In this document: piece by piece, positions 22,581-62,058 of the stretch
Layout: the number at the start of each line of letters is the position of its first letter
Position numbering within the stretch: the stretch's first letter is position 1
From: Nitrospinota bacterium
Lineage (GTDB): Bacteria > Nitrospinota > Nitrospinia > UBA9942
DNA: 64,000 nucleotides
Assembly: GCA_016194325.1 (NCBI GenBank)
Contig: JACQBS010000105.1
Coordinates: 9,419 to 73,418 of the forward strand
Direction: 5' to 3'
The notes under the pieces: generated by a model
Database searches by the model: none
Told to the model about the DNA's origin: nothing
Seen by the model: the letters and a program-made list of their open reading frames with translations, nothing else
Made by a program: the position numbers and the translations under genes

Positions 22581-22942
22581 GATGATGTGAGGTGAACTTT
22601 AACTATGGTTTCCGTTTAAGAAAAGAGGGATAAAAAGCAGCCTGTCTCCTTTTTTTAGATGCTAAAGGGTTATGGAAAAAGACATACAGAGAATATGTCA
22701 GAAATTGAGCAGACTTTTGACCTCTTTAGTTCCTTTGGGATATTGAGTATGAACACTTATCCTCTTTTCTGTCTATCACTCAAAAAGTAATGATAGTTGT
22801 TCATTACAAAAAAAAACCAGACAAATTCCAGAATAGCATTAGACAAATTACAGGATAACCCTTTACAATTTTACAAGCGTGTTTTACTCTGCCTTGGCGT
22901 GTTTTAGCGTGTTTTTTGTCATATTATTGACATCAAAAGGCT

Positions 22943-23710
22943 TCAAAAGTTCATTATGAGTAATTCTGTAACTTTTTGTTTTTTATCTACCCCTCCAATA
23001 TTATACATTGTTTCAACTTTTTTGATATTAAAATCCTTATATAGTTCTCTTATCTCTTTCGTATTATTAATAGACATTATAAATTTACCTGAGATTGACT
23101 TCAAGATGTCTCTTATCTTAACGAAGTCATCCTTATAGAATATGCCTTTTCCATAATATCCTTCACAGTCATAATAGGGAGGATCGAGGTAAAAAAATGT
23201 GTGAGCCTTATCGTATCGTTCTATCAATTTTTCATAATGCATATTCTCAATAAATACCCTTACAAGTCTGAGATGGGCAGCAGAAAGTTCCTCCTCTATT
23301 CTTAATAAATTAAGTCTTGATGGTCTAACTGTTGAGCTTGTAAATGTTGGATTATCTACTCTGCTGGCATATCCTGTCTTCAAGAGATAATAGAACCTTA
23401 CTGCCCTCTGTATGTCTGTCAGTGTGCTGGGATTTTCATCTTTAAATCTTTGAAACTCATCTCTTGCAACCAGTATCCACCTAAAAAATCTTATAAATTC
23501 GTCTAAGTGGTGTTTTACTACCCGATAAAGAGTCACAAGGTTTTTATTGATGTCATTTAGAACTTCAACATCAGACTCGTCTTTTTTAAACAGTAGCCAT
23601 GCTGCACCTGCGAATACTTCACAGTAACAGGTATGTTTTGGAATTAGCGGAATAATCTTATTTGAAATGATAGATTTCCCTCCTAAATACGATAAAAAAC
23701 TTTTTCTCAT
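22943..23710 (-). CDS. Dam-family (D12 class) N6-adenine DNA methyltransferase
   Basis: N-terminal FLSYLGGK, motif I EVFAGAAW, C-terminal DPPY catalytic motif. Start set at MRKSF (23710), which avoids overlap with the RT. Confidence 0.75.
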   Translation of the reverse strand: MRKSFLSYLGGKSIISNKIIPLIPKHTCYCEVFAGAAWLLFKKDESDVEVLNDINKNLVTLYRVVKHHLDEFIRFFRWILVARDEFQRFKDENPSTLTDIQRAVRFYYLLKTGYASRVDNPTFTSSTVRPSRLNLLRIEEELSAAHLRLVRVFIENMHYEKLIERYDKAHTFFYLDPPYYDCEGYYGKGIFYKDDFVKIRDILKSISGKFIMSINNTKEIRELYKDFNIKKVETMYNIGGVDKKQKVTELLIMNF

Positions 23711-23723
23711 TGTATCTCCCTCC

Positions 23724-24746
23724 CTAATTTTTGCTAAATGTAATACCACCAAAAACTCTTTTCACTACATTATAGCTATTAGAATGTTTTACATGCCCAA
23801 GCCATGAGGTTATAGATTGTTTAATCTTTTCGAGTGTTATTTTATTGTGTTTATATAACTCCACAAACTTTTTGAGTTTTCTCCGCATTCTTATGAAGCT
23901 CCTTTTTCTTAAGAGCCTATGAGTTGGCCATGTGCGATATCCTACAAAGTCAACCCCATGAGAAATAGGAAAAACAGAGGTTTTATAATTTAGCTGAAGC
24001 CGTAATGTGTGCATTAAAAAGTCACCTATTTCTACTTTCCATAAGTGCAGTTGCTTTTTATTGCTGTGTAACAACACAAAGTCGTCCATATACCTGATAT
24101 AAAATTTAACCTGCAGTTTCTCCTTTACGAAATGGTCAAGCTCATTCAGATACACATTTGCAAATAACTGACTTGTCAGATTTCCTATTGGGAGTCCCTT
24201 ATCTCCATCCGCACTATCTACAATCTCATCAATAAGCATTAGTGTCCTTTTGCATCTTATTGTCCTTCTAATTATGTTCTTCAATGCCTCATGATCTACG
24301 GAGGGAAAGAATTTCGATATATCGGCTTTCAGACAATAAACGGTATTCCATTTTCGTTGCGCCCTCCTTAGAAACTCTACAAGCCTATTAGATGATGCAT
24401 GTGTACCTTTTTTACTTCTACACGCATAAGAGTCATTAATAAACTTCTTTTCAAGAAGTGGCTCTATAACAGTGCATAAGGCATGGTGGATAACTCTATC
24501 CCTAAATGGTAATGCCGAAATCACTCTTCTCTTTGGTTCATGTATAACGAACTTCCTGTATTGCCCTGTTTTGTAACCACCATTCATCAATTCACTCTGT
24601 AAAACAAACAATTCCTCCTCTATATTGCTACTGAATTCTAACACCTCCTTCTTATATCGCTTACAGCGTCTCGCTTTGAGGTATGCATTATAGAGATTGT
24701 CAAAGGTATATATCTTTTCAAACAAGGCATTATATGTTTTAGGCAT
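23724..24746 (-). CDS. Diversity-generating retroelement (DGR) reverse transcriptase
   Basis: RT motifs 1-7 including YMDD (YIRYMDDFVLL) and the DGR-specific motif 4 LPIGNLTSQLFANVYL. 340 aa, no maturase or endonuclease domain; lies next to the TR. Confidence 0.85.
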   Translation of the reverse strand: MPKTYNALFEKIYTFDNLYNAYLKARRCKRYKKEVLEFSSNIEEELFVLQSELMNGGYKTGQYRKFVIHEPKRRVISALPFRDRVIHHALCTVIEPLLEKKFINDSYACRSKKGTHASSNRLVEFLRRAQRKWNTVYCLKADISKFFPSVDHEALKNIIRRTIRCKRTLMLIDEIVDSADGDKGLPIGNLTSQLFANVYLNELDHFVKEKLQVKFYIRYMDDFVLLHSNKKQLHLWKVEIGDFLMHTLRLQLNYKTSVFPISHGVDFVGYRTWPTHRLLRKRSFIRMRRKLKKFVELYKHNKITLEKIKQSITSWLGHVKHSNSYNVVKRVFGGITFSKN

Positions 24747-24758
24747 ACAATCTCCTTG

Positions 24759-24950
24759 TCATTTAAATTTTCTTTTGATTGATACATCTAAATCAGTAAC
24801 TCCTCCCTGATTCAAATTAATCTCCAAGATCAATTTGCCTGTGAAATTTTTAACATCCTCTTTTATAACTTTATATTTATTCATATCCTCAATACATCTA
24901 ATCAAAGTTTTCTTCCATTCTTTTTCTTTACCCTCCATTGTGTCCTCCAA
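24759..24950 (-). CDS. Small hypothetical protein between the TR spacer and the RT
   Basis: 63-aa ORF only; no recognizable motif. Confidence 0.2.
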   Translation of the reverse strand: MEDTMEGKEKEWKKTLIRCIEDMNKYKVIKEDVKNFTGKLILEINLNQGGVTDLDVSIKRKFK

Positions 24951-24959
24951 AAATAAAAA

Positions 24960-25255: not shown

Positions 25256-25367
25256 AGTCACAGGCGAAGCGAGCGCCAATATTCGTATTCACATTCCACG
25301 GATAGTTGTTCAGATTGACGCACCGAGAACCAGCGATTACGCCATTATTCCAGTTGCCGCCAGCAAT
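25256..25367 (-). repeat. DGR template repeat (TR), 112 bp
   Basis: Matches 25767-25878 at 104 of 112 positions. All 8 mismatches lie at adenines of this copy on the minus/coding strand. It is non-coding and sits directly after the avd stop. Confidence 0.85.
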
Positions 25368-25371
25368 GCTC

Positions 25372-25704
25372 TTAACCCACACTTTTAATCCATCCTCCCA
25401 ATAACCTCCCTATTTCCGCTATAAGCTTACCGCTATGCTCATAACTCTTATGTGATAAATGTTTCCTGTCATGAGCAAACCTTATCAAAAACTTTAATTC
25501 CTCTAATTTTACATCAATGTCATACATCAGGGGCTTTTTATTCCTACTTTTATTAGTTCTGATAATTCCCCTTGCAATATCAAGCACACAGTTTTTAATA
25601 TGTGTGCATAGGACAAACTTTTCATACTTTGGAAATTTATCAACGATAGGGAAAAAATATAATGCAAAGTCATAAACCTTCTGATATATAATCAAATTTT
25701 CCAT
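25372..25704 (-). CDS. avd: Accessory variability determinant (Avd-like) small basic helical protein
   Basis: 110 aa, basic, predicted helical bundle; canonical position between the target gene and the TR. Confidence 0.6.
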   Translation of the reverse strand: MENLIIYQKVYDFALYFFPIVDKFPKYEKFVLCTHIKNCVLDIARGIIRTNKSRNKKPLMYDIDVKLEELKFLIRFAHDRKHLSHKSYEHSGKLIAEIGRLLGGWIKSVG

Positions 25705-25758: not shown

Positions 25759-26841
25759 TTACAGAGAGTCACAGGCGAAGCGAGCGCCAATAGTCGTATT
25801 CACATTCCACGGATAGTAGTACAGATTGACGCACCGAGAACCAGCGATAACGCCACTACTCCAGTCGCCGCCAGCAAGCAACATAACCAACTCAATGTTC
25901 GAATACATATATAGCTGACCCGCATTCATGCCCGGCATTACATCATAATAATTCCACCCGACAGTACCATCTGGTCTTATTATGAAGCAGTCAATCCACT
26001 CCCACACATTACCAACGCAGTCTACAACATTGAGAAGACTAATTGCATTAGCTACATAACCTGTGTTTTGTCTACCCGTGTTAGTTGTTGCAGACCACGC
26101 ATTTACATTATCTCCATTATTACCCTGTGGTGAGCCGTGGGCTATCTGCAGCCATTCTGCATGGGTCGGAAGCCTTTTTCCCGACCTGCGGGCCATTTCA
26201 ATAAAATTGTAACCAGACAATCCTTCTGTCCCTGTCAGTGGTATAGCATTATAGATACTTTTAGCTGTGCCGGTAAGTATGGGAGAACCGCTTCCTGCTG
26301 CGAAAGTAATCGCCTCATCAACTGAGGAGAGGTAAATATCCACCCATACACCGTTACCCAAATATACCATACCCTCCGGGCTGCAGCGTGGTTTATGGCA
26401 TAAATCCCAGACAGAATTTGGAACCACTACGCCGCTTGTTACATCTGCGACTGTAATACTATTTCTTTTCCTCCCATAGTGGAATCCGCCGATTCTACGG
26501 GAGTTCGTGGTGGTATATCCACTCGGAGCAGTAGAGTTTGCTGATATGAGCAATAATCCGTTGTCAGTGCCATTATCACAGAGATATATATAGTAGTTTA
26601 TGCCGAGGGTTAATACACCTGTATCAAGTGTCGTTACTTCGGTGTCTGTTGCAAACAGATATGCTTTCCGTGTAGAGCCACTTATTAATGAGAGGATAGT
26701 GTCTGCTTTGACTACGACCCCATTCCCTGTTGCGTTTGCCTCAAGATATTTATTTGAGATTCCCGGTCTTATATCAAGCGGGCGCATTAAAAAGACATCA
26801 TTTATTGGATATGCTGGATCATTTTTCCATATTAGTGACAT
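25759..26841 (-). CDS. DGR target protein: phage receptor-binding / tail-fiber-associated protein with C-terminal C-type-lectin (FGE-like) fold carrying the VR
   Basis: C-terminal HAEW...GNVWEWI...GGDW...RCVNLYYYPWNVNTTIGARFACD matches the FGE/CLec DGR-VR scaffold. The VR occupies the last 40 codons. Confidence 0.8.
   Translation of the reverse strand: MSLIWKNDPAYPINDVFLMRPLDIRPGISNKYLEANATGNGVVVKADTILSLISGSTRKAYLFATDTEVTTLDTGVLTLGINYYIYLCDNGTDNGLLLISANSTAPSGYTTTNSRRIGGFHYGRKRNSITVADVTSGVVVPNSVWDLCHKPRCSPEGMVYLGNGVWVDIYLSSVDEAITFAAGSGSPILTGTAKSIYNAIPLTGTEGLSGYNFIEMARRSGKRLPTHAEWLQIAHGSPQGNNGDNVNAWSATTNTGRQNTGYVANAISLLNVVDCVGNVWEWIDCFIIRPDGTVGWNYYDVMPGMNAGQLYMYSNIELVMLLAGGDWSSGVIAGSRCVNLYYYPWNVNTTIGARFACDSL
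25767..25878 (-). repeat. DGR variable repeat (VR) with GC-rich IMH at its 3' end
   Basis: Partner of the TR. The substitutions convert TR AAC/AAT (Asn) codons to TAC and similar. The GGCGCTCGCTTCGCC segment is conserved in both copies; the flanking 3' sequences differ (IMH vs IMH*). Confidence 0.85.
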
Positions 26842-27184: not shown

Positions 27185-28111
27185 TTAAATTAAAATTACT
27201 GCCTTGCCTGTTTGAGGCGTGGCAAAATATATTTTAAGATTATTGCTGTCAACTTTTCTTGTTTTTGTATATGAAATTTCTGTGTAATCTAACACAGTCC
27301 CCGATATTATTCCGTCTCCGCAGTAACTCCCATCTCCACAGTAACTCCCGTCTCCGCAAAAACCACTTGCGTAATATGTCTCTGCTGCGGATTCTGAGAA
27401 GACTTTTACTACCGGGATATTCGGAGTATTGAGGTTGTGTATTATGCTCCATTTGTCTAATGCTGTATCTTGAATATATTCTATCCGTTTTGAAATTCCT
27501 GAATGAGCATTGGGATCACCGTTGTGGACATTAATAGCTGAGCCTATTTGAGCAGGGATATTATGCTCGGTTGTATTTTGTTTATGAGAGTCAAGGGAGT
27601 TCCTTATGTCCTGGTGAGATGCAGCCGATACATCATGATTCTGAATATCCTTTTTAGTTGCAATCACAACTGTATCTGATATAACGGCAGTTACATTCTG
27701 TGTATTCGCTACAACAGTGAAAATATCGGTAACATTCTCAATAAGGGTTACGCCGGCAACAGGTATGTAATCAGCCTTATTCCCTGCGGAGGTCACGGCA
27801 TAGAGGATTTCTCCTAAATCAGGGTCATTTGCAAATATCCCTATTTCACGAATGAAAAAGCCTGCGGTCAGCCCTGTATTCGTCAGGACAAATCTGAGTT
27901 TTGATGTCCCGTCACCAGCAACTTCCAGAGATTGAATTGCCAGACTCTTTTTCTCGCTTATAAGTGCGGTTAAAATTGTTGGATCCTGTCCAGTGGTCCA
28001 CGCTCCATCTCCTATTCCAATCCGTGTGAATTGCAGTGTAACACCTGTCTGTGCCTTTGCCAACAGGTTTCTCCCTCTATTTGTTAATATGGTGCCGCTG
28101 AAATCACCCAT
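27185..28111 (-). CDS. Phage tail fiber protein (putative) with an internal (GDGSYC)3 repeat
   Basis: Position after the baseplate gpI/gpJ genes; Gly/Thr-rich; tandem repeat. Confidence 0.45.
   Translation of the reverse strand: MGDFSGTILTNRGRNLLAKAQTGVTLQFTRIGIGDGAWTTGQDPTILTALISEKKSLAIQSLEVAGDGTSKLRFVLTNTGLTAGFFIREIGIFANDPDLGEILYAVTSAGNKADYIPVAGVTLIENVTDIFTVVANTQNVTAVISDTVVIATKKDIQNHDVSAASHQDIRNSLDSHKQNTTEHNIPAQIGSAINVHNGDPNAHSGISKRIEYIQDTALDKWSIIHNLNTPNIPVVKVFSESAAETYYASGFCGDGSYCGDGSYCGDGIISGTVLDYTEISYTKTRKVDSNNLKIYFATPQTGKAVILI
27313..27360. repeat. 18-bp tandem repeat (about 2.7 copies) inside the tail fiber gene encoding GDGSYC units
   Basis: Read directly: CGTCTCCGCAGTAACTCC / CATCTCCACAGTAACTCC / CGTCTCCGCAAAAACC. 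Confidence 0.7.
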
Positions 28112-28797
28112 GATTTTGCCTCCCTAACGACCCCTGCCATAGAATAGGCAGATTGACTCACATTTACTATTGGATTATGAACACCGATTGAATTTGTCAT
28201 TGCAATCCTCTGAGCTAATGCTGTATAGATATTTATACCTTCTACATCAGTTCTTAGATGCAGACCTATTGTGCAATACTTTCCGTCCTTAGCAGCAATG
28301 CCGCAGTAAACCGAAGCCGTATACTCTCTATGGATACCAATCGCCTCCAACCATGACCGAACATTTTTATATTCGCCAATGAGGTCTACTAATTTTTTAT
28401 ATGTCTCTTCATCTTGAATAACGGATTTTAGTAATACTTTAAATTTGTATGCGGTTCCTGAATACTGAAACCACTCCTCTATTTCAGCATTGAGATTCAA
28501 TATCTCAAAAACTTTTTTAATTGCCCACGGAGTTCCTTTGTATCGATGCAGCTCGATAGCGCCTTTTATTAAACCCCTCTTTTCAGCTTCTGTCTTTGCA
28601 AGCTTCCATCCCTCAACATGAAATTGCCAGGCAAGGAAGGGGAGAATATTCGCAGGCACATTATCAATGAGATAAACAAGGACTGCATTAAGTTCAGATT
28701 CTACTGAAAAGACCTTATCCGCAGCCTCGCACAGCCCTTCAAGGTTTTTATCTCCCTGTAAGTTTACAGGCAGTAAATCTTTTGTTTTGTTAGCCAT
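28084..28797 (-). CDS. Phage tail protein I (P2 gpI-like baseplate protein)
   Basis: LPFLAWQFHVEGW and HRYKGTPWA resemble Tail_P2_I conserved blocks; synteny with gpJ. Confidence 0.5.
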   Translation of the reverse strand: MANKTKDLLPVNLQGDKNLEGLCEAADKVFSVESELNAVLVYLIDNVPANILPFLAWQFHVEGWKLAKTEAEKRGLIKGAIELHRYKGTPWAIKKVFEILNLNAEIEEWFQYSGTAYKFKVLLKSVIQDEETYKKLVDLIGEYKNVRSWLEAIGIHREYTASVYCGIAAKDGKYCTIGLHLRTDVEGINIYTALAQRIAMTNSIGVHNPIVNVSQSAYSMAGVVREAKSWVISAAPY

Positions 28798-29917
28798 CTA
28801 CACTCCCTGCAACAGTTACATTTATACCGGAGCATATCGCTACTTCATTATGTGCAATCAAAATATATGCAGGCTGATTAACCACTGCCTTATAGACACC
28901 TGCTATCTTCTGGAGTATCCCTACTATTTGCTCTGGAACCACATCAGTCCCAAGTTTTTCCTTTACAGATTTTGTATAGCTCTCAAGGCTTTCATTTGCC
29001 TTTGAGAGAATTACATCTGAAAGCATCGATGACGATTTATAGATATAAAGCTGGACATCTATGGTGTAATTAACAGTCACAGGTGATTCAATAATCACGG
29101 AATCAGTTAAGGGTCTTACCTTCTCGTCACTCAATTTTTCAGAGACAAGATTGAGCATGTTTGTATCTGGCAACTGCCCATTTTTTAGTAGTAGTGCAAC
29201 CTTCACCGTGCCAGGCTGTGGACTCCACACGGAAACATCAACGATATCTTGATGTGCTGTCTTTGCCCAATACTCATAAGCACCAGATGACCCCGCATTA
29301 CTGAACATCTCAGGTGCAATCTGTATACGCATCCGCAAGTGGTCATTACTTTCAATATCAACTCCGCCATAAGTCAGGCTTGCATTTTCAACCTTCTGCA
29401 CATAGGGGAGAGGATTAATAAGCTGATTTATATCTCCAGCAAGATAACCGCTGCCTATTTCACCAGCATCAACGGATGTAGCCGGGACATCAATATAAGT
29501 GCTGCCAACATTCGCAGTGACATCCTCTGATGTTGCAAAAGCAGCCTTATTGTCTTTACTCATAACTTTTGTTCCTGTGGGAATAAGCAGAGGAGATGTT
29601 AAAGCGGCTTCAAAAGTAAAGCGAAGGGTTGTAATTGCTGCTGCTACAGGAAGTCTTGTTACTCCAAGCAAAGCCCCCAGATGATCCAGCATTTCTCCAT
29701 TTGCATAAACAAGGAGATTCTGCTTTGCAACCTCATTGATGTTTATCCTTAAGAGATTCTCTCGATAGGCAAAGGTGGCGAGGAGAAGGGACTCAATCTG
29801 CCCTTTTGAAAGGGGAATTCCAACGATCCCTTCATAGGACTTTACAATCTCCCTGTATTGTTGATTCCAGTTTACAGGTATAAATTCTGGCTCTGGCAAT
29901 GTCTTTAAATCTATCAT
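28790..29917 (-). CDS. Baseplate J-like protein (P2 gpJ / gp47 family)
   Basis: Size and position between the gpW-like and gpI-like genes. Confidence 0.5.
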   Translation of the reverse strand: MIDLKTLPEPEFIPVNWNQQYREIVKSYEGIVGIPLSKGQIESLLLATFAYRENLLRININEVAKQNLLVYANGEMLDHLGALLGVTRLPVAAAITTLRFTFEAALTSPLLIPTGTKVMSKDNKAAFATSEDVTANVGSTYIDVPATSVDAGEIGSGYLAGDINQLINPLPYVQKVENASLTYGGVDIESNDHLRMRIQIAPEMFSNAGSSGAYEYWAKTAHQDIVDVSVWSPQPGTVKVALLLKNGQLPDTNMLNLVSEKLSDEKVRPLTDSVIIESPVTVNYTIDVQLYIYKSSSMLSDVILSKANESLESYTKSVKEKLGTDVVPEQIVGILQKIAGVYKAVVNQPAYILIAHNEVAICSGINVTVAGSVDG

Positions 29918-29944
29918 ATTTTATTTGTAGCAGACTTAAAGATA

Positions 29945-30307
29945 TTATGATGTAAAATCTGCTAAAACACTTAAAACAACTTCCTGATCGGTTTGTGAGT
30001 CTGTAATCATGCCTGTAATCTTAAAGACTATCTTCCCGGATGCTGAGGCACTCATGAGTTTTATTTTAGATGGCTTGAATCTTTCTGAATTTATCTTTAT
30101 TGCCCTGTATGCCTCAGCAATTATCAACGGTCTTGCTACATTCTGTGGTTTATCGAGATACTCTGGAATCCTGCTGCCAAATTCAGGGCGATGGGGAATA
30201 GAGCCAAGAGGAGTCGCCAGAATAAGACCTATCTCCTGATTTATATCCTCTATACCTGTAAGCGTCTTACCTACTGAGCCAAGTTTAATTTGCATATCTT
30301 CTAACAA
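29945..30307 (-). CDS. Baseplate wedge protein GPW/gp25-like
   Basis: 120 aa; the conserved block GLILATPLGSIPHRPEFGSRIPEYL matches the GPW_gp25 pattern. Confidence 0.65.
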   Translation of the reverse strand: MLEDMQIKLGSVGKTLTGIEDINQEIGLILATPLGSIPHRPEFGSRIPEYLDKPQNVARPLIIAEAYRAIKINSERFKPSKIKLMSASASGKIVFKITGMITDSQTDQEVVLSVLADFTS

Positions 30308-30346
30308 CCCCCTTTCTCCCCCTTTAGTAAGGGGGATTAAAGAGGA

Positions 30347-30727
30347 TTATAAAATTGGTGTGGTCAATGTGTCGTATATCTTTTGATACTTATCGGCAAT
30401 ACTCATTGCATCGGGACCTGTAACAACCATAAGCACCCCTGCACTGTAACCATCATTAGGTGGTGCGCCTGATTCACTTTGTGCCCTCGATGCCCAGCCC
30501 CCCTGACCAGGCTGAAGATAAAGGACATAGATACCACTTGCAGACAGCTTATCTGCAAGACTCGTATTGTTCGACATAAGGGAGTTCATTGCATCGAGCC
30601 TGCCCTGAAGGTTGCCCAGCACAAGATTCCCTTTTTTCAGCAGCTTATTCACCTCTGTCTTCTGTGCATCGAGGGAGAGCTTAAGTCCCCCGAAAATACT
30701 GTCTAATGTAAGTGACTGCCAAGGCAT
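30347..30727 (-). CDS. Hypothetical phage baseplate-region protein
   Basis: ORF only. Confidence 0.3.
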   Translation of the reverse strand: MPWQSLTLDSIFGGLKLSLDAQKTEVNKLLKKGNLVLGNLQGRLDAMNSLMSNNTSLADKLSASGIYVLYLQPGQGGWASRAQSESGAPPNDGYSAGVLMVVTGPDAMSIADKYQKIYDTLTTPIL

Positions 30728-30744
30728 AAATTATCTCCTATAAA

Positions 30745-30850
30745 AACAGGTTAAGGTTTAGGTTGAGGTTAAGGAAAGAATTTGTAAAACCAATTCCTTA
30801 ATTGGAAATTGGAAATTAGAAATTCTCCTCGACCTTAACCTTAACCTGTT
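30745..30850. repeat. Intergenic long hairpin (AACAGGTTAAGGTTTAGGTTGAGGTTAAGG / CCTCGACCTTAACCTTAACCTGTT) enclosing an AATTCCTTAATTGGAAATTGGAAATTAGAAATT element
   Basis: Read directly; the element recurs at 44937-44976 and, degenerate, at 16630-16655. Confidence 0.55.
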
Positions 30851-30852
30851 TT

Positions 30853-53611: not shown

Positions 53612-53617
53612 ATTTAT

Positions 53618-53866: not shown

Positions 53867-53869
53867 TTC

Positions 53870-54259
53870 TCATCCCTCCTTTTTTTCAAAATACAGTTCT
53901 ACCGTCTGGTGATGTAATTTGTAGAGCACTTTAGGATTAAGCCAGTCAGAGTCTCTTACATCATCAGGCACAAGTCCTACTGCATCACCAACAAAAAATA
54001 CTTTCCCCTCACCGAGCGTAAATTTCTGCCCCACTTTCGGTGTTGACGGGAAAAAACCCCTTACCAAATCGCCTATATGCATTGACTTTCTTGTTTTTAT
54101 AACTTTTGCCGTAAGCTTGCCATGCTGATTATTAATTGATTTATCTAAAAAACGACAATATTTGTCGCACCACTCATCAAAAAAGAGAAAAACGGTTCCG
54201 TATCTATCACTTATCCTTTCTTTTCTGTCCCAATTTAAAACACCTTTACCAATGTACAT
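53870..54259 (-). CDS. Hypothetical protein
   Basis: ORF only. Confidence 0.3.
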   Translation of the reverse strand: MYIGKGVLNWDRKERISDRYGTVFLFFDEWCDKYCRFLDKSINNQHGKLTAKVIKTRKSMHIGDLVRGFFPSTPKVGQKFTLGEGKVFFVGDAVGLVPDDVRDSDWLNPKVLYKLHHQTVELYFEKKEG

Positions 54260-54262
54260 CCT

Positions 54263-54790
54263 TCATCCCTCCTTTCTCTGTGGGGCTGCAAATGTTACTA
54301 TCACAACCCTTTTTCCAAATCCCTTTGCCTTTTTGTAATTCCCCATGAAGATGTCTATCCTGTTGCCCTTGATTTTTCCTCCTGTGTCCTCTGCCTTGAA
54401 CCACCCCATCCCCTCAATATAAACTTCGCTGCCAAGCGGAATCACAGCAGGGTCAACCGCTACTACTCCGATTCTTGCAACCGTCCCTGTCGCAGTTCTT
54501 CCATCCTGCCACTTTGAAACATTGATGCAAATGTGCGAGTTGCAATAGGCAGTCGCAATAAAGGTTTTAGTCATAAATTTCTTATTGAGCCTTTCGTTTT
54601 CCTCTCTTAATTCTTTTAGCGAGTCAGCCGCCTCTTGCATCTCTGCCTTAATCTGCATCCTTAAATTTTCCGTCTGCTTAAAGTGCCAGAAATATCCTGC
54701 AGCTATCCCTGTAACCAGCAGTATCATCGCTACTGCTATTTTGTTTATTTCTATTCTTTCAAACCGCAAATCCGTCATATCCCCCATCAC
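54263..54790 (-). CDS. Membrane-anchored 3D-domain protein (MltA/YuiC-like cell-wall-binding or lytic domain)
   Basis: N-terminal transmembrane segment; the C-terminal YCNSHIC...GTATGT...IAVDPAVIPLGS...DTGG pattern is typical of the 3D domain. Confidence 0.5.
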   Translation of the reverse strand: MMGDMTDLRFERIEINKIAVAMILLVTGIAAGYFWHFKQTENLRMQIKAEMQEAADSLKELREENERLNKKFMTKTFIATAYCNSHICINVSKWQDGRTATGTVARIGVVAVDPAVIPLGSEVYIEGMGWFKAEDTGGKIKGNRIDIFMGNYKKAKGFGKRVVIVTFAAPQRKEG

Positions 54791-54965
54791 CTCCCTTTTT
54801 GTAATCGCTCTCTTCAGCCATGAGCATTATCCCCACAGCCCCAATCACTACCCCGATAATTATCCCCACTGCCAGCCATGTTAAAAACATCTCCTCACCC
54901 CCCATATCTCCTGCATCCGTAGCACTCATGCGGATGCCTGATTTGATAGATAATACAAACTGCAA
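54759..54965 (-). CDS. Small membrane protein
   Basis: ORF with one transmembrane helix. Confidence 0.25.
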   Translation of the reverse strand: MQFVLSIKSGIRMSATDAGDMGGEEMFLTWLAVGIIIGVVIGAVGIMLMAEESDYKKGGDGGYDGFAV

Positions 54966-55040
54966 AGTCTGTGTATCCCTGACAATTCTGGCTGTTTCCA
55001 GAACAGCCCCTCCGCCCTTTTTTCCTTAATCTCCTCTGCT

Positions 55041-55664
55041 TCATATCCCCTCCCTTTCCCCGCTTAATGACTGCGGGGACATGCCTTTTTCAACCTTCCT
55101 TAAAAATCCAAAACATACCTTCAGCTCCTTTATACTGCAAAGCCCTACATCCCATTTATCGAACGCCTTTCGGCAAAACCCTTTTAGCCTGTTCTCCCAG
55201 TATTCCCCTAAAATCTTTTCCGCCTCCCTCTTTAATGCCTCTGCCATCCTTCTCCTCACATTATTCACAGCGCCCTTTAATGAAACCCTTTTTGAGGCTT
55301 GGAATCCTACGGTTTTAAAAGCTTCCAGCACCCTGCGAAGCTCCTTCCCTGTCATATCCTTACAGGATATTTTTTTTGTGAGCCTGAACAATGCGCGCCT
55401 GTAATCAAGGTCTTCCACCTGCCTTAAGTCTTCGCCATGACATTTCTGGCACATGACATAAAAGGTGTAGGTATTGCAGCTCTTACAAATCTTCATATCT
55501 TTTTTTGCAATATGTATCTTTGCAATCATCTCCCTGCGATATTTAAAATCTTTAACTACGCTTTTCTTCCTCTGGTGACTGCCGGCTACTGACTGCTGAC
55601 TACTGACTACTGACTGCCGACTGCTGATTGCTATCACCTTACCCATATTCATCACCTCACTCAT
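55041..55664 (-). CDS. GemA-like regulatory protein (Mu gp16 / DUF1018 family)
   Basis: Duplicated YRREMIAKIHIAKKDM ... YRRALFRLTKKISCKDMTGKELRRVLEAFKTVGF blocks match the GemA pattern. Confidence 0.55.
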   Translation of the reverse strand: MSEVMNMGKVIAISSRQSVVSSQQSVAGSHQRKKSVVKDFKYRREMIAKIHIAKKDMKICKSCNTYTFYVMCQKCHGEDLRQVEDLDYRRALFRLTKKISCKDMTGKELRRVLEAFKTVGFQASKRVSLKGAVNNVRRRMAEALKREAEKILGEYWENRLKGFCRKAFDKWDVGLCSIKELKVCFGFLRKVEKGMSPQSLSGEREGI

Positions 55665-55747: not shown

Positions 55748-55980
55748 TTAAGTATTCTCGGCCGCTCCCTTAGCTCCCTATCTATAAGGCAGTAAAGTGG
55801 GCTCCTTCCTCTTTTCCCAATCTGTTTAATGAACCCTTCCTTCTTATAAATACACATAATCAGCTTTACATAGAGCCTCTTAATCCCTGTAACCTGTGCA
55901 ATTTCATTGACTGTCCAGATTGGGGAATACCTCCACGCCCTCCATATCCTGTCTGCTTTTTCACCATATTTCTCCCTCAT
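55744..55980 (-). CDS. Small winged-HTH-like protein
   Basis: 78 aa, basic. Confidence 0.3.
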   Translation of the reverse strand: MREKYGEKADRIWRAWRYSPIWTVNEIAQVTGIKRLYVKLIMCIYKKEGFIKQIGKRGRSPLYCLIDRELRERPRILK

Positions 55981-56852
55981 AACACCCTCACTATGTCCAT
56001 CGTTACTACATGCTGATTAGAGGTATTCATTATTCTTACAATTGAATGTGCGTCCCTTACCACATATCTAAAATCCCCTCCCGACCTCTTCCATATTGCC
56101 TTTGCACATTCGGCATCGAGGTCAATCCCTGCTGCAAGCCTGAAATACGCCGAGACATCCGATAGTGTTATCTCCTCAAAGGCGACTGTCTGACGAACAC
56201 GACTCTTTAATCTTCTTTCTCTATCCATATACCTCACAACAGCCTCCTCACCTATGAGGACAATCGGGCATAAACACCGTTCATTAAGCCCCCGCAGCAT
56301 CTCTACAGATTGCAGGTGCATCTTATCTGCCTCATCTATAAGTATTATCTTCCTCTTACTCCTTGTCGCCTTTTCAATCTCCATCAGACAATCACGGAAT
56401 CTAAAAGGGCGGATTCCGTTCAGCTCATAGGCTATCTCTCTGGACACATCTGTGAGGGAAAATCCTGTGATGAATTGGACATACACTGCATCGGGGTTAT
56501 TCACCGCATAATGCACCGCAGCCTTTGTCTTCCCCCTGCCTGCTGTCCCTACAACAACACCAAAAGATGAGGTCAAATCCCCCTCCGATAGCTCATCACA
56601 GAGGGAATTGAATTTTCTGACATTGCTTGTCTGAATAAAGACATCTGCCCTCACCCTGAAATTTTTTTCTTGCAATCTGTATCCATGTTCTGATAGTTTA
56701 TTGACAATATCTGCCTCAATCTCAGAGGTATTACCACTGTATTTGCCCCTGATAATGAGGCTTATGGTGGACTCATCATAGCCTGTGAGCTTGGCGACTC
56801 TGGCATTGATGAGTTCACCTTTATACTGCTCCATTAACTTCTTTAATTGCAT
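55977..56852 (-). CDS. MuB-like AAA+ transposition target-DNA activator
   Basis: Walker A GTAGRGKTKAA and Walker B ILIDEAD; N-terminal HTH; follows the transposase gene. Confidence 0.7.
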   Translation of the reverse strand: MQLKKLMEQYKGELINARVAKLTGYDESTISLIIRGKYSGNTSEIEADIVNKLSEHGYRLQEKNFRVRADVFIQTSNVRKFNSLCDELSEGDLTSSFGVVVGTAGRGKTKAAVHYAVNNPDAVYVQFITGFSLTDVSREIAYELNGIRPFRFRDCLMEIEKATRSKRKIILIDEADKMHLQSVEMLRGLNERCLCPIVLIGEEAVVRYMDRERRLKSRVRQTVAFEEITLSDVSAYFRLAAGIDLDAECAKAIWKRSGGDFRYVVRDAHSIVRIMNTSNQHVVTMDIVRVL

Positions 56853-56910: not shown

Positions 56911-57180
56911 TCACCCCCTTTCATTCATGGATTTGTAAAGCCTCTCAAACTCCTCAAATCTTACCTTCTCTGTCTCGTCCATCCCTGCCTCATACCGCCT
57001 CATAAACTCCTCATCTGCCTCAGTGAGATGGAATCCACCAAGATGATCCTCAAGCAGCGACTGATAGCGGTCAACCTCATATTTATATGTCCCCCTCTTT
57101 GCCCTGAGTTTTATGGGTCTTTGTTCTGTTGACTCTGCCACAATTCTTTCAGTTTCTTTTTTTAACTCCTCATCCGTCAT
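56911..57180 (-). CDS. Small acidic hypothetical protein
   Basis: ORF only. Confidence 0.25.
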   Translation of the reverse strand: MTDEELKKETERIVAESTEQRPIKLRAKRGTYKYEVDRYQSLLEDHLGGFHLTEADEEFMRRYEAGMDETEKVRFEEFERLYKSMNERG

Positions 57181-59234
57181 CTGTCTTCTGTCTTCTGGCT
57201 TCTGACTATCTTCTGGCTGCTATATTCAATGACTCCAGGTACCGGTGCGGTAAGTTTTTTGTAATGCTCTCTGACCTTTTCCATCATCTCCTTTTTCCAC
57301 TTCATAAGCTCCGTTACAAGCTCATTGTCCTTCATTGAGCTTTCAGGAACCTTGCGGAGTGTAATTGCCTCTCCGCCGGGCTTTACTGCAAAGGCTTTTT
57401 CAAAATCGTAAGGGTCATACCTTACCTCAACCCTCGTGCCATCCGCTAAATCCCATAGACCACATTCAAGGTTCAAACCCTCATAAAGTTTCTTCTCTAT
57501 CCATATCCGCCCACGATTAACAGTCCTCTCCTCCCTTTTTAAGAGGACAAAATCAAGCTCATGCTCCGGCATATACACCGGCTTAAACCCTTCATTCTTA
57601 ACCGCATACAAAAGCTCCTCCATCGGAGTTCTCCCTAATGCTGAGTGTCGGCGATTTGAATAAACCCCCACTCCCTCTATCGCCTTTAAAATAAACTCCT
57701 CCGGGGTGAGGAGCTTGTTTTCTTTAATGAGGTTTTTAAGCCTTCTATCTGATAATGCCTTCTCCTCAGATGTCCCTTTAAGCTCTCTGATATGTCCTGG
57801 AACGCCGAGGTCTAAAAGTATTCGCTCAAAACTCCCAAAAAACCTTTCAATTAGTTTTGCCTTAGCATTATAAGGTCTTGCATATCGATGCCATACCTCT
57901 GGAGTATCTACCGTCTCTATAATCTTTCCTTCGTCTTCCCCCTCGATGGCATATTTGTTATCCTTTGTCCTGTATAACTCCACAATATCTTTACTCTGTA
58001 TCCCATAAGCCTGCAGGTCATTCCCCACAAGATTGAAAAACCTTGAAGTCTCAGGCTTTCCATTATCCGTATATGCCTTTTGAAATTTTCCAAAATGTCC
58101 TATCCCCATTCTCATGGAAAGCCCTATCATGTATGAGTTGTAACGGTCAGCAAGACTGCATCCGTAGATATTTCTTGTGCGGAGGTCAAGCCAGAAATAT
58201 CCCTCCATCCTGAATATTTTGTCTATCTCCCTGTCATGCACCCAGAAATCAAACCTGTGCTGGTCTCCAACGATACATTCAAAGGGTGCAAGGTCTTTGT
58301 ATTGCCTGATAATATAGAAGATATTGTCAAGGGCACGGCTGCCGCCACGGGCATACTTTTCAAGGAGAGGATTGAGTCGGGTGAAATGCTCATAAGCGGA
58401 AGATTCAGAGCCGATTTTCCAGCTCTCCTTTTCTGCCTTTGATGCCACAGCCTGATAGACAAACCGTTTTGAAGCATCACCGGCTTCACGGATAGCCTTG
58501 AGATATACACCCTGCATATATAAGAGCGCCTCTGGATCCCATGCTGTCGTCCCTTTCTGCTTTCTCTCCTTATTAAAATATTGCGAGCCTTGCTCCTTAT
58601 ACCCTTTAATATCACCGCAAAGTGTCTGGTATGTTATGCCTGCCTCTACCGCACATTTCCTTTTCCACTTACCTTTTTTATACCCCTGCGGCACGGAGAG
58701 CGCCTTTTGCACCAGCTCCATCCTCTCATAATCAATCTTGCATACCGTTATCTGCCCCTCACAATTTCCCCCTTTATCTACCTTCATCTTTTCAATCTCC
58801 CACTGTGCCTGTGATGAGAGCCTTTCTTTAATATGTTCTGAGAGTAGCTTTGCAGTTTCTTGATTTTTCTGAATCCACTTCAACTGGGCATCGGGAGGGA
58901 GAGAGGATAGGGCAATTCGGTATTGCTTACCACCGTTGCCATTAACTTTGATTGCCTTATATTTACCTTCTTTACAGCCCTTCAGTACTGCTTGAAGTGT
59001 AATACCTAAAAATTCTTCTACTTCTTTCCGTGTCAAATATATGTCATCATTTTGAGCATGATTTTGGTTGTAACCTTTGGTCAAAATTGCCTGATTTTCG
59101 GTTGTAACCTTACCATTTTGGTTGTAACCTTGGTTGTAACCTTCAGCTAAAAGGTTACAACCTTCTTTTTCCCCTATCCCGTCATTAATTTGACTTTTCA
59201 TAACCCCCCTCTTTACTGTCAGGGATAATGCCAT
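57177..59234 (-). CDS. Mu-type DDE transposase (MuA-like)
   Basis: rve-type core with CIVGDQHRFD, YTDNGKPE and IERFFGS blocks (DDE); N-terminal DNA-binding region; 685 aa. The 5' end overlaps a decamer repeat array, so the true start may lie downstream. Confidence 0.75.
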   Translation of the reverse strand: MALSLTVKRGVMKSQINDGIGEKEGCNLLAEGYNQGYNQNGKVTTENQAILTKGYNQNHAQNDDIYLTRKEVEEFLGITLQAVLKGCKEGKYKAIKVNGNGGKQYRIALSSLPPDAQLKWIQKNQETAKLLSEHIKERLSSQAQWEIEKMKVDKGGNCEGQITVCKIDYERMELVQKALSVPQGYKKGKWKRKCAVEAGITYQTLCGDIKGYKEQGSQYFNKERKQKGTTAWDPEALLYMQGVYLKAIREAGDASKRFVYQAVASKAEKESWKIGSESSAYEHFTRLNPLLEKYARGGSRALDNIFYIIRQYKDLAPFECIVGDQHRFDFWVHDREIDKIFRMEGYFWLDLRTRNIYGCSLADRYNSYMIGLSMRMGIGHFGKFQKAYTDNGKPETSRFFNLVGNDLQAYGIQSKDIVELYRTKDNKYAIEGEDEGKIIETVDTPEVWHRYARPYNAKAKLIERFFGSFERILLDLGVPGHIRELKGTSEEKALSDRRLKNLIKENKLLTPEEFILKAIEGVGVYSNRRHSALGRTPMEELLYAVKNEGFKPVYMPEHELDFVLLKREERTVNRGRIWIEKKLYEGLNLECGLWDLADGTRVEVRYDPYDFEKAFAVKPGGEAITLRKVPESSMKDNELVTELMKWKKEMMEKVREHYKKLTAPVPGVIEYSSQKIVRSQKTEDR
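59066..59162. repeat. Five copies of the decamer GGTTGTAACC/GGTTACAACC (dyad-symmetric) within 100 bp
   Basis: Read directly at 59066, 59100, 59120, 59132 and 59153. Confidence 0.7.
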
Positions 59235-59344: not shown

Positions 59345-59776
59345 TTAACCCTCCTTCCTTATCTTTTCTATTTCCTTATCTATCTCTGCTTTTTGGGCTT
59401 CCAGCTTGGCTATCTTCATATACTTGCTCTCTTCAGAAGTCGCCACATCACATCCGATAGAGTTAAGAAGAATCCTGAACGGCTCAACTATCCCAAGCAC
59501 AAAACAAAGAGCATGTAGCACCACCGCTGGAATCCTATACTCAGCCTTTGTAGATGTATACTGGTCAAGCATCTCCTTACTCACGGTTCTCCCTAATAAC
59601 TCCGAAACCCTTGCAGCTATTTGGTATCGGGACATCTTACAGCTACGCATCGCATCTGACAGGCATTCCCGGAGCCGCCTGTCAACATCCAGACTCCCCT
59701 CTATATCAGTGGAGAACAGATTCATTGATACCACCCCTATCGAATCTTTTTTACTATTTGACATTGACGCCCCCAT
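59345..59776 (-). CDS. Hypothetical early protein (possible DNA-binding)
   Basis: ORF between ner and the transposase. Confidence 0.3.
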   Translation of the reverse strand: MGASMSNSKKDSIGVVSMNLFSTDIEGSLDVDRRLRECLSDAMRSCKMSRYQIAARVSELLGRTVSKEMLDQYTSTKAEYRIPAVVLHALCFVLGIVEPFRILLNSIGCDVATSEESKYMKIAKLEAQKAEIDKEIEKIRKEG

Positions 59777-59822: not shown

Positions 59823-59999
59823 CTACGCCACCTTCCCCTCCTCGGGCCACAACTCCGCAATCGGCAGTCCAATCTCATCCGCTATAGCTTTGCGGAGCTT
59901 GTGGGATTTAATCCTCCCAGTGATGGTTTTATTAATAGCAGACCGACAAACCCCGATTCTACGGGCAATTGCCGCACCCTTTATTCCCTTTTTAACCAT
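59823..59999 (-). CDS. ner: Ner-like HTH transcriptional regulator
   Basis: 58 aa; KGAAIARRIGVCRSAINK...IAELWPEEG resembles Mu Ner/Nlp; divergent from the repressor gene. Confidence 0.55.
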   Translation of the reverse strand: MVKKGIKGAAIARRIGVCRSAINKTITGRIKSHKLRKAIADEIGLPIAELWPEEGKVA

Positions 60000-60083
60000 C
60001 TCAATCCGTATTTTTTTGTCTATTGTTATCAACATGGAGATAAATATAATCGTATTACAAGTATTTGTCAAGTAAAAAATGCT

Positions 60084-60710
60084 ATGCAAGTAAAAAAAAA
60101 TATAGGTGATAGGATTAAACAAGTGCGAAAGGCTCAACACCTTACACAGCAGGCATTCGCAAGGATTCTGGGAATAACACAGGGTTTTTATACCGGCATA
60201 GAGACAGGTAAATATAGTACAAGCAATGAAATTTTAACTTGCATAACAAGTAATTTTAATATCAATCTTAATTGGCTTCTCACTGGCGAGGGTGAGATGT
60301 ATAAAAGACTCCCGATACCTAAAGCAAAGCCAACAGTGCTTGTCCCTGTTCTTGGTAGAGTCCCGGCAGGCTTTCCAAATGAGATTCCTGAGAATGAAAT
60401 AACTGAATATGTTCATTTACCAGATGCACCACCAGGTTCCTTTGTCCTTATAGTAAAAGGCGACAGTATGAGTCCCAAAATAAAAGACGGAGATTATGTC
60501 ATCTTTAAACCAAATGGAGAGATTAAAAGCGGAGATGTGATAGTAGTAAATAATGAATATGGTGAAACTATGCTAAAAAAATACTATGTGGATAAAAATG
60601 GAGATGTGTTGTTGGTCAGCGAAAATCCTGAATATCCCGCTTTTAAACCAAACGAACACTATAGTATAATAGGTAAGGTTATAGATGGGTGGAGAAAAGT
60701 AAAATTTTAG
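60084..60710 (+). CDS. Phage repressor, HTH-XRE plus S24 (LexA-like) peptidase
   Basis: N-terminal IKQVRKAQHLTQQAFARILGITQ HTH; C-terminal GDSMSP ... KK S24 signature. Start set at the Met at 60084. Confidence 0.7.
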   Translation: MQVKKNIGDRIKQVRKAQHLTQQAFARILGITQGFYTGIETGKYSTSNEILTCITSNFNINLNWLLTGEGEMYKRLPIPKAKPTVLVPVLGRVPAGFPNEIPENEITEYVHLPDAPPGSFVLIVKGDSMSPKIKDGDYVIFKPNGEIKSGDVIVVNNEYGETMLKKYYVDKNGDVLLVSENPEYPAFKPNEHYSIIGKVIDGWRKVKF

Positions 60711-60724
60711 GAGGAGGTAGCTGT

Positions 60725-61363
60725 ATGAAAAGATGTTTGCTTATATCTTTATGTATATTGGCTTTCGTTATAGGTATCTCACACGCTGAGCAAATAGTTG
60801 CAAAAAAGGCAGGAGTTGGGGACACATTTACCACTATAGAATCGGTGTGGAATAGGGGATATAAAAAAGAAGTACCTATGGGAGACGGTTCAAAAACAGT
60901 AACGATTGGTTTTGATAAAGGAAGTGCTTTCTCTTATACAACTGGATTACTGGGTTATGCTTTTGGTAACTCTGAAAGAGCAGGTCGATTGGAAGGAAAT
61001 GCTAAAGGACTTTTCGGAGCAGTAATTGGAGTTAATCCAACCAAGCAACAATTCTTTCAAGGTATTAAAGATTTGATGCCTACGGATTTTGCTTTAATAG
61101 GAGCTTATGTTAATAAAAATGACCCTTTACGGCATTGGAAGAAAGAAATCTATACCTTTAAATCTAAAAAGTTATCTCAGTTACAAGGAATATCAGAAGC
61201 TTTCCCTTATAAGCAATATAAATACACTTTGGGGAATTTTACTCTAATTATCAACTATGATATTGATAATGAAGATAAGGTTGCTAACTTCCTTCTTTTT
61301 TTAGGTCTTAGTGATTCTAATATTGAGGATATGAAAAAGATAGACGCAAATCCTTTTAAATAG
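60725..61363 (+). CDS. Secreted or lipoprotein-like protein of unknown function
   Basis: Signal peptide MKRCLLISLCILAFVIGISHA. Confidence 0.4.
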   Translation: MKRCLLISLCILAFVIGISHAEQIVAKKAGVGDTFTTIESVWNRGYKKEVPMGDGSKTVTIGFDKGSAFSYTTGLLGYAFGNSERAGRLEGNAKGLFGAVIGVNPTKQQFFQGIKDLMPTDFALIGAYVNKNDPLRHWKKEIYTFKSKKLSQLQGISEAFPYKQYKYTLGNFTLIINYDIDNEDKVANFLLFLGLSDSNIEDMKKIDANPFK

Positions 61364-61365
61364 TT

Positions 61366-61587
61366 ATGAAGCACCTTATTATAATCTCGGTAATTTTCTT
61401 TTGCTTTTCTATAGCTTCTGCCCACTCTGGAAGATTGGACTCCAGTGGTGGACATTATAATAGAAAGACTGGAGAGTATCATTATCATAAGATAAAACCA
61501 CTATCAGAAAATTTTAAAAAAGAGCCCAAACAGTCCTCAAAGCCCTCCAAATCAAAGACTAAAAGCTCTAAATCCAAAAGAAAATAA
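61366..61587 (+). CDS. Small secreted YHYH-motif protein with Lys/Ser-rich tail
   Basis: Signal peptide; GGHYNRKTGEYHYH motif. Confidence 0.35.
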   Translation: MKHLIIISVIFFCFSIASAHSGRLDSSGGHYNRKTGEYHYHKIKPLSENFKKEPKQSSKPSKSKTKSSKSKRK

Positions 61588-62058
61588 AAAAGATAATGTC
61601 ATAAGTTTGTCACTTTAAGCTTTATAAACCTTTATAAAGAAATTTGCGATTTGTAAAATTATAAAGCATTATTCTGTAATTTTCACCCAAAACCTCACTT
61701 TCTACCAAAAATTACAAAACCAACCTTACAAAAAACTCTTTGTTTTCATTAAGGTTATGCTATATCCTATAATTAAGTTTATCTAATGTTATATTGTAAT
61801 TAACAATAGTCGGAAATAATATATATAGTTTTATGGTTTTTATTAATAATTTTATTGTTTGTTTTAAAAGACAGAAACCGTATAATAACTTGTTATGTGT
61901 AAAAAGCATGCTTATAATATATAGTATCCGCCTTTATGTTTAAGCCTCTAAGTCCTTTATAAATTTTTCATCAGGTATCACAGCCTTTAATCTTGAACTT
62001 ACTGCTTCTATTCCAATTCCACTAAAATTTTCCATTAGATTTTAGAACTGAGAAATAG

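Follow-up and report, generated by a model that had tools for sequence, protein, structure and literature searches.

The window analysed here is a 64,000-nucleotide (nt) stretch of Nitrospinota DNA, and positions 22798 to 61805 of it hold a prophage. The source records belong to an NCBI metagenome-assembled genome (MAG) labelled Nitrospinae/Nitrospinota bacterium (MBI3584177/78/82), and identical copies of the phage occur in the Logan assemblies SRR12113409 and SRR12113410. About 60 co-oriented open reading frames (ORFs) fill the minus strand from ~22.9 to 60.1 kb. One plus-strand ORF lies within this block and three stand at the high-coordinate end. Gene calls were tested by profile search against Pfam, PHROGs and NCBIfam. 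The origin of each module was examined with phmmer, comparing every window protein with the six-frame ORFs of phages Mu, P2, BPP-1 and YPCBV-1. The minus-strand gene order given in an earlier sequence-only reading is correct, and the profile searches back nearly every gene call. With high confidence, we regard the element as an apparently intact temperate myovirus, a transposable Mu-like ('Saltoviridae') prophage lodged at an intergenic site of the Nitrospinota MAG.

Prophage ends and transposition genes

The limits of the prophage and its transposition and regulatory genes are as follows.

22798..61805, minus strand: whole prophage, 39,008 bp; repressor 'c' end at 61805, fibre/retroelement/Dam 'S' end at 22798
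22793..22797, strand not applicable: target-site duplication, copy 1, ATAGT
61806..61810, strand not applicable: target-site duplication, copy 2, ATAGT
22798..22888, plus strand: S-end; terminal TG and contiguous ~21-nt repeats, sites 22824 and 22846; putative transposase-binding sites
61651..61805, minus strand: c-end; terminal repeats 61801-61781 and 61774-61754, spacer, inner site 61681-61661
60084..60710, plus strand: LexA/CI-type repressor; HTH_3 and Peptidase_S24, with GDSMSP and A-G cleavage motifs
59823..60035, minus strand: Ner-like helix-turn-helix protein; HTH_35 at 23 bits, below cut-off
59345..59776, minus strand: transcriptional regulator of 143 amino acids (aa)
57177..59234, minus strand: MuA-family DDE transposase, 685 aa; D324, D390, E463
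55977..56852, minus strand: MuB-like AAA+ transposition ATPase; AAA_22 and TniB; phrog_296 at 167 bits, Mu B at 45 bits

The termini came from ungapped motif comparison of the two end regions, gapped alignment of such AT-rich DNA being uninformative. At 22798 ATAGT is followed by TGTTCATTACAA, and at 61805 TTGTAATTAACA is followed by ATAGT. The ends have the form 5'-TG...CA-3' with a terminal inverted repeat that matches at 11/12 positions. ATAGT makes a perfect 5-bp direct repeat on both sides, for which the chance is ~0.001 by our estimate from base composition. A 32-nt inverted repeat pairs 22845-22876 with 61651-61682. The prophage that had been placed at 22867-61660 is therefore real, with its true ends lying 69 bp and 145 bp further out, and the 5-bp target-site duplication that was to be looked for flanks the TG...CA termini. 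Scans of the window with Rfam and for tRNA genes gave no hits.

Repeats of ~21 nt with the motif AATTACAGRATAAYNCTTTAY are present as two tandem copies at the fibre end and, at the repressor end, as two outer copies and one inner copy past a spacer. Set beside Mu, this layout is attR/attL-like, and the c-end resembles attL (L1, gap, L2/L3). The repeats are putative binding sites of the transposase. A stricter, 24-nt form of the end repeat occurs three times in the window, where chance alone predicts 0.00 occurrences. The third of these copies (43496-43519, minus strand, two mismatches) is internal. It is found at the first codons of the Mu-F-like gene. The prophage ends are ~18.3 kb and 20.7 kb away, which puts this copy near the centre of the genome, and it is missing at the equivalent junction of a relative whose F protein is 60% identical.

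Three related viral contigs lose similarity to the prophage exactly at ...AATGAACA, the S-end terminus, and their flanks are mutually unrelated. No c-end terminus was detected in the IMG/VR relatives. Inside the ends, the transposase matches Mu-transpos_C (33 bits, Pfam) and phrog_310 (193 bits). Its D324, D390 and E463 align with D269, D336 and E392 of MuA and are invariant in 10 homologues, and its core gave a weak direct match to the MuA structure 4FCY in a PDB profile search. The gene for the MuB-like ATPase adjoins that of the transposase. The duplication, the TG...CA ends, the D-D-E triad and the S-end terminus common to the relatives all support the proposal that this is a Mu-like transposable phage.

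Some of these properties would also be expected of a cellular transposon of the Tn7/Tn552 type that had enclosed phage genes, rather than of a phage replicating by transposition. The C-terminal domain of the transposase scores about as well against TnsB as its core does against MuA (PDB), the ATPase also matches TniB, and Tn7 likewise makes 5-bp duplications. However, the ends enclose a full phage genome, with GemA, Mu gp27, portal and F among its genes, arranged in the canonical order of Mu, and the two transposition proteins belong to PHROG transposase and transposition-protein families at the 193 and 167 bits given above. Genes for TnsA, TnsC, TnsD or a resolvase are absent, and the relatives include viral contigs of equal length. 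A cellular transposon is thus extremely unlikely, and we retain the reading of a phage that replicates by transposition.

In the mechanism that we propose for this phage, the MuA-family transposase and its MuB-like partner would bind the ~21-nt sites at both ends. The transposase would then cleave at the terminal CA-3' and join the ends to target DNA at points 5 bp apart, which would yield the 5-bp duplication seen here. Lysogeny would be kept by the autocleavable LexA/CI-type repressor, whose gene is divergent from that of the Ner-like protein. This divergent pair had been predicted and is borne out, with S24 and HTH domains in the repressor and a weak match (23 bits) for the Ner-like protein. 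The segment 59345..60035, comprising the Ner-like gene and that of the 143-aa regulator, also has matches to phrog_769 and phrog_2345. Because the repressor is of the autocleavable LexA/CI type, induction is probably SOS-linked, unlike that of Mu.

Retroelement and terminal methylase

The right arm of the phage ends with the tail fibre gene, a diversity-generating retroelement (DGR) with its template repeat (TR), variable repeat (VR) and reverse transcriptase (RT), and a methylase gene.

27185..28111, minus strand: tail fibre with tail-collar fibre N-terminal domain; PF12571 at 46 bits, phrog_7037 at 170 bits
26854..27171, minus strand: 105-aa protein just upstream of mtd; sole homologue found is the same-position gene of YPCBV-1
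25759..26841, minus strand: Mtd-like DGR target; mtd_2nd at 85 bits and FGE-sulfatase (C-type-lectin fold) at 29 bits
25767..25877, minus strand: VR; final 37 codons of the target gene
25372..25704, minus strand: Avd; bAvd at 109 bits, NF033474 equivalog at 121 bits against a cut-off of 80
25256..25366, minus strand: TR, 111 nt with 24 adenines
24759..24950, minus strand: 63-aa ORF between TR and RT; unassigned, 53-59% identical in two relatives
23724..24746, minus strand: DGR RT; IGNLTSQ and YMDD motifs, RVT_1 at 72 bits
22943..23710, minus strand: Dam-family D12 N6-adenine DNA methyltransferase, last gene, MBI3584177.1

The cassette is complete and follows the tail fibre, where Mu has S, U, the G segment and gin, so the placement of a DGR in the slot for tail-fibre variation holds. 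TR and VR are 111 nt each and differ by seven mismatches, 7/7 of them at TR adenines. The TR contains nine AAY codons; 14 codons are variable, which allows ~4e13 possible peptides, and no stop codon is reachable. The VR has an invariant G+C-rich 3' stretch, and the hairpin downstream of it is not significant (z = -1.2). In phmmer comparisons Mtd, Avd and RT match BPP-1, with higher scores against YPCBV-1; the RT scored 243 bits with BPP-1 Brt and 271 bits with its YPCBV-1 counterpart. The Mtd-like protein shares 30% identity with BPP-1 Mtd and 42% with YPCBV-1 ORF53. It is a putative receptor-binding tail tip and would be carried on the fibre, with the 105-aa protein as a possible fibre-Mtd adaptor or chaperone. 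The segment 24950-25255, which lies downstream of the TR and precedes the 63-aa ORF, contains two tandem hairpin-like units of ~55 nt and a terminator-like stem with a T-run. These elements may delimit the DGR RNA.

The DGR is expected to work as that of BPP-1. The RT would copy the avd-TR transcript and misincorporate nucleotides at random opposite the adenines of the TR, and the resulting cDNA would replace the VR. The ~4e13 Mtd variants accessible in this way would permit tropism switching, the same biological end as is served in Mu by Gin inversion of the G segment.

In two close relatives of the phage (L089:11650-15000 and L091:11900-15340) the fibre, small-ORF and target genes have the same sizes as their counterparts at 25759-28111 of the window and no detectable similarity to them, with the RT 51-71% and Avd 41-83% identical in the relatives compared. 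These relatives and Pseudomonas phage Bise have A-biased VR/TR pairs of their own (9/10, 11/11 and 9/9). Because the dissimilar receptor modules each have their own A-biased TR/VR, the receptor-binding unit and the TR appear to have been replaced together. This suggests that the receptor-binding unit moves with its cognate TR as a cassette, Avd and RT being kept while fibre, adaptor, target and TR are exchanged together. In the window, Mtd and the 105-aa adaptor are nearest to those of the halophile phage YPCBV-1.

The methylase matches PF02086 (115 bits) and TIGR00571 (117.6 bits against a cut-off of 114.85) and has a DPPY motif in its translation. Its gene begins 13 nt past the RT stop and ends 145 nt before the terminus; if translation began instead at a TTG at 23752, the gene would overlap the RT. 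It is the last gene, inside the element and at the mom position, which agrees with the claim of a Dam-family methylase in the mom slot. The protein has no phmmer match to Mu Mom or Com, and its resemblance to Mom is positional only. The methylase most likely protects phage DNA from host restriction, in which role it would be a positional and plausibly functional counterpart of Mom.

Orphan methylases of the Dam family are common in phages (502 records). Placement of Dam directly after a DGR RT was found in 1/50,697 phage records, that of Bise, and in one IMG/VR relative. The RT-then-Dam adjacency is common to different phyla, together with the tail module. GATC is scattered through the prophage with none in the ends, the operator or TR/VR, and its observed-to-expected ratio is 0.28 in the prophage and 0.18 in the host flank. 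Because GATC is scarce in phage and host alike, its placement is uninformative about the methylase. The ratio for GTAC is 0.19 in the host flank and 0.11 in the prophage, and TCGA is also strongly under-represented in both. The scarcity of the three palindromes hints at restriction pressure on them in this host lineage.

The closeness of the two genes raises the alternative that the methylase is no anti-restriction analogue of Mom and instead works with the DGR, or acts as an epigenetic regulator of phage genes or of transposition. The spacing of 13 nt fits such a role, as does a linkage that is rare among phage records and yet conserved, both in the relative (Dam 74%) and in Bise (Dam 46%, RT 40%). 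However, the adjacency could reflect one inherited right-arm block, the tail genes also being common to Bise. The methylase family is frequent in phages that lack a DGR, and most DGR phages have no Dam. Furthermore, TR, VR, ends and operator region are all free of GATC, and DGR mutagenesis, by its established mechanism, targets adenines of the template RNA, which are beyond a DNA methylase. Coupling to the DGR or an epigenetic function is rather unlikely on this evidence, and we continue to favor protection from restriction.

Structural, lysis and accessory regions

The remaining genes of the phage, from the baseplate to the repressor end, are listed below together with the heptanucleotide arrays that lie among them.

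28084..33352, minus strand: P2-type baseplate/tail genes in the order gpU, 61-aa ORF, gpX, gpD, gpV, two small ORFs, gpW, gpJ, gpI
33349..38174, minus strand: sheath, tube, chaperone, tape-measure protein (Pfam); sheath and tube match P2 FI/FII
38176..47017, minus strand: head and head-tail joining module; gp27-like small terminase, TerL, portal, F, protease/scaffold, decoration-like protein, capsid, virion morphogenesis protein
47599..49537, minus strand: putative lysis cassette; 96-aa membrane protein, secreted 200-aa protein, small Cys-rich ORF, i-spanin and overlapping o-spanin
49682..50563, plus strand: 293-aa secreted protein, a moron between the lysis and early regions; no family match in Pfam or PHROGs
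50578..55664, minus strand: semi-essential early region; GemA, 3D-domain protein, ASCH, HTH_17, radical SAM and several unassigned ORFs
50578..51297, minus strand: radical SAM protein, PA0069/Rv2578c-like, well below family cut-offs
54263..54790, minus strand: membrane-anchored 3D-domain protein; matches phage peptidase PHROGs
55041..55664, minus strand: GemA, 38.5 bits
60689..61587, plus strand: inside the c-end and past the repressor gene, two small secreted/lipoprotein-like ORFs of 224 aa and 73 aa with a YHYH motif
30800-30824, 38320-38349, 38392-38422, 44946-44977, 48380-48404, 48566-48593, 49215-49239: period-7 arrays, part 1
53556-53587, 55572-55632, 55667-55705, 55709-55747, 56882-56908, 57176-57204: period-7 arrays, part 2

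The head genes had been read as Mu gp27/terL/portal/F/I/T-like. Profiles agree for gp27 (Mu Gp27 profile PF11985, 47 bits), the large terminase (phrog_38, 289 bits), the Mu portal (PF06074, 294 bits), Mu F (PF04233, 48 bits) and the protease. The capsid is not T-like. It belongs to the lambda gpE family (PF03864, 158 bits), and no phmmer match to any Mu or YPCBV-1 protein was obtained with it. The virion morphogenesis protein is of the P2 S/Mu G family.

P2-like U/X/D/V/W/J/I baseplate genes and a fibre are found as described, and the likeness to P2 extends to the sheath and tube, making the whole tail P2-type. Matches by phmmer were to P2 FI, FII, X, D, V, W, J and I at 16-93 bits, not to Mu; J reached 196 bits in the profile search, and gpJ also gave a weak match to Mu gp47 (23 bits). 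Apart from this gpJ-to-gp47 match, the direct phmmer matches to Mu are confined to MuA, MuB, GemA, portal and F, and no window protein matches Mu gp1, T, L, M, S, U, Gin, Com or Mom. The statement that the genome mirrors Mu is therefore right for gene order but does not extend to every module, the repressor being of LexA/CI type, the capsid of lambda-E type and the tail of P2 type. The genome is a mosaic in which Mu-type transposition genes and Mu-type gp27, portal and F are joined to a capsid of the lambda gpE type and to a contractile tail and baseplate of the P2 type. It lacks the set of features that marks Muvirus sensu stricto, namely the Mu repressor, gpT, the Mu tail/baseplate, Gin with the G segment, and com/mom.

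A lysis cassette with holin, SLT endolysin and spanins had been proposed. The spanins are plausible, the i-spanin through a weak match to the Rz-like spanin family phrog_739 and the o-spanin through an overlapping lipoprotein ORF that fits this role. The 96-aa membrane protein is a putative holin by position and hydrophobicity and has no family match in Pfam or PHROGs. The SLT label of the 200-aa protein was not confirmed, and a single-sequence AlphaFold model gives it no structural support, being unusable (pLDDT 35.6). The start of this putative endolysin is probably an internal ATG, which gives a signal-peptide-like N-terminus; in an alignment with relatives the 31 codons upstream are a lineage-specific insertion. 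A long nested REP-like palindrome (49149-49203) lies just upstream of the gene.

In the early region, the radical SAM and 3D-domain proteins are unusual for a Mu-like phage. Neither of the ORFs that follow the repressor gene has a Pfam family match or a counterpart in relatives. Together with the 293-aa moron these two make three plus-strand ORFs with secreted or lipoprotein-like products, which are probably lysogenic-conversion cargo.

Repeats are also found in the tail region. A shorter REP-like palindrome, GTCATTCCTGCGAAGGCAGGAATCC, is an in-frame insert at 33551-33576 that encodes IPAFAGMT in the C-terminal part of the tape-measure ORF. The host flanks within the window contain no such palindrome. 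Between the two small baseplate-region ORFs, a 27-nt inverted repeat (30742-30853, 93% complementary, 58-nt loop) contains AGGTTA and AATTGGA repeats.

Twelve tandem arrays with a period of 7 nt and 3.6-8.7 copies occur where phage genes adjoin or within the initial or final codons of these genes. They are built from about nine different units, some of which are used at several loci. One such array is present in the 22.8-kb left host flank, and one or none in the relatives, Mu, P2 and YPCBV-1. Alignment with the relatives identifies the arrays as lineage-specific insertions, and a search of the literature gave no relevant account of heptanucleotide arrays in prophages. Since 7 is not a multiple of 3, slippage in array copy number would shift reading frames. 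We considered whether the linkage of RT and Dam denotes a functional coupling of DGR and adenine methylation, for example in the control of when or where homing or transposition takes place, and whether, separately or in addition, the arrays and the internal end repeat form a second variability system based on slippage or recombination. Such an arrangement is very unlikely.

Several results weigh against a Mu-like phage of the kind described. Likeness to the proteins of Escherichia coli Mu is weak (MuA 21 bits, phmmer), and the nearest transposase of a cultured phage, that of BalMu-1, is 25% identical. Homologues of Gam, Mor and C were not detected in the Pfam and PHROGs searches. The 200-aa putative endolysin found no match in Pfam (E<=1), PHROGs, NCBIfam or the PDB profile search. 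A 30-mer representing the empty site, with the flanks joined over one ATAGT, was not found in genome_contigs or metagenome_contigs. The contigs of SRR12113409 and SRR12113410 are 100% identical across the S-end with the same flank and no alternative junction. Finally, the Mtd cluster has a single member with no VR variants on record, all other copies on record being identical to the window phage.

Part of this evidence could also be explained by a fixed, immobile prophage, either cryptic or domesticated as a tailocin-like or DGR-bearing asset of the host. Such a prophage would account for the single insertion site in both samples that hold the phage, the lack of VR alleles on record, and the want of a recognisable endolysin family. 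The lineage-specific junction insertions formed by the heptamer arrays, and the REP-like palindrome within the tape-measure ORF, point the same way. However, all ~60 ORFs are uninterrupted; both ends are intact, as are the DDE triad and the 5-bp duplication; the repressor retains its S24 catalytic motifs; and the head, packaging and tail genes are complete. Moreover, the VR departs from the TR only at adenines, as past homing predicts. A fixed prophage is unlikely on balance, and the transposable phage, apparently intact, may be active.

Comparison with known phages

Exact-sequence look-ups of the transposase and of a nitroreductase, with the start codons chosen here, returned no record, and megablast of 22 kb against INPHARED found no near relative. 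In IMG/VR, three contigs encode MuA 54-70% and J 66-76% identical to those of the window phage, with the order J, I, fibre genes, target, Avd, 63-aa ORF, RT and, where the contig extends far enough, Dam. MuA homologues of 55-59% identity come from MAGs labelled Nitrospirota, Desulfofervidaceae and candidate division CPR3, and more distant ones from Treponema and from Deltaproteobacteria/Thermodesulfobacteriota MAGs.

Pseudomonas phage Bise (OR683401.1) has a right arm of the same build. It is transposable, with transposase, Ner-like protein, CI-like repressor, Gam and Mor annotated, and its sheath-tube-tape-measure-U-X-D-V-W-J-I arm is 32-42% identical to ours. This arm is followed by fibre genes, a DGR target with A-biased VR/TR, Avd, RT (40%) and, directly after it, Dam (46%). 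The RT-Dam segment of Bise (L218, 35606-37825) is the counterpart of 22943-24746 in the window. In contrast, the transposase and ATPase of Bise have no detectable BLASTP similarity to ours, and neither its DGR target nor its capsid is related. Bise infects a gammaproteobacterium, and two further small ORFs lie past its Dam gene.

Chromohalobacter phage YPCBV-1 (OP380511.1) has been published as a Mu-like myovirus, and its genome closes at the right end with mtd-avd-TR-RT (PMC9769972). It has the nearest Mtd (42%), the nearest homologue of the 105-aa gene and an RT that scores 271 bits. It differs in a Mu-type baseplate (DNA-circularisation N, gp46, gp47, DUF2313) where ours is P2-type, in having no Dam past the RT, and in a G+C content of 67%.

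Other Mu-like phages with a DGR have been described. DGRs in Mu-like phages of Firmicutes are attributed to Toussaint 2013 (Res Microbiol 164:281) in PMC5883640. Mushu, a DGR-bearing Mu-like phage, has a 5-bp repeat and packages its DNA in the manner of Mu. Hankyphage combines a DGR with a Mu-like transposase and with 5-bp repeats at random sites, and prophages of Desulfovibrio piger are a further DGR/Mu-like case. BalMu-1 has a 'transposase A' and an RT near its right end and is distant (transposase 25% identical, as above). Hankyphage, Mushu and BalMu-1 are like the window phage in the Mu-like transposase, the 5-bp direct repeats at random sites and the DGR acting on a tail protein, and unlike it in being mostly siphoviruses or having other tail modules, with no Dam after the RT. 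The novelty implied for this architecture does not survive the comparison, as it is already present in published or deposited phages (the Firmicute Mu-likes, Hankyphage, Mushu, YPCBV-1 and Bise).

The DGR itself has the cassette order of that in Bordetella phage BPP-1, mtd-avd-TR-brt, with Mtd 30% and Brt ~40% identical, a homologous Avd, the VR at the C-terminus of a C-type-lectin fold, and adenine-specific mutagenesis. BPP-1, unlike our phage, is short-tailed and integrates at a tRNA-His attachment site, with no transposition module and no Dam after brt.

Escherichia phage Mu shares the order repressor/ner, A, B, GemA, lysis, gp27, terminase, portal, F, protease, capsid, tail, fibre, with a DNA-modification gene last. 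The TG...CA ends, the 5-bp duplication and direct homology of A, B, GemA, portal and F, with the weak gpJ-to-gp47 likeness, are also held in common. Mu differs in its own non-S24 repressor, its gpT capsid and its Mu-type tail and baseplate. In Mu, Gin and the invertible G segment take the place of our DGR, and com/mom that of our Dam. The tail proteins match P2 FI, FII, X, D, V, W, J and I, whereas P2 has an integrase and cos ends. The combination of a Mu-like genome with P2-like tail proteins has already been described for BcepMu in PMC10612066, where no DGR is reported for that phage.

The prophage adds a well-delimited, apparently intact DGR-bearing transposable phage from the Nitrospinota, a phylum with few described phages. 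It leaves the current understanding of Mu-like phages and DGRs unchanged; the exchange of the receptor-binding unit with its TR among close relatives is modestly useful as a comparative result. A layout of Mu-type transposition module, contractile tail and right-end DGR spans very distant hosts.

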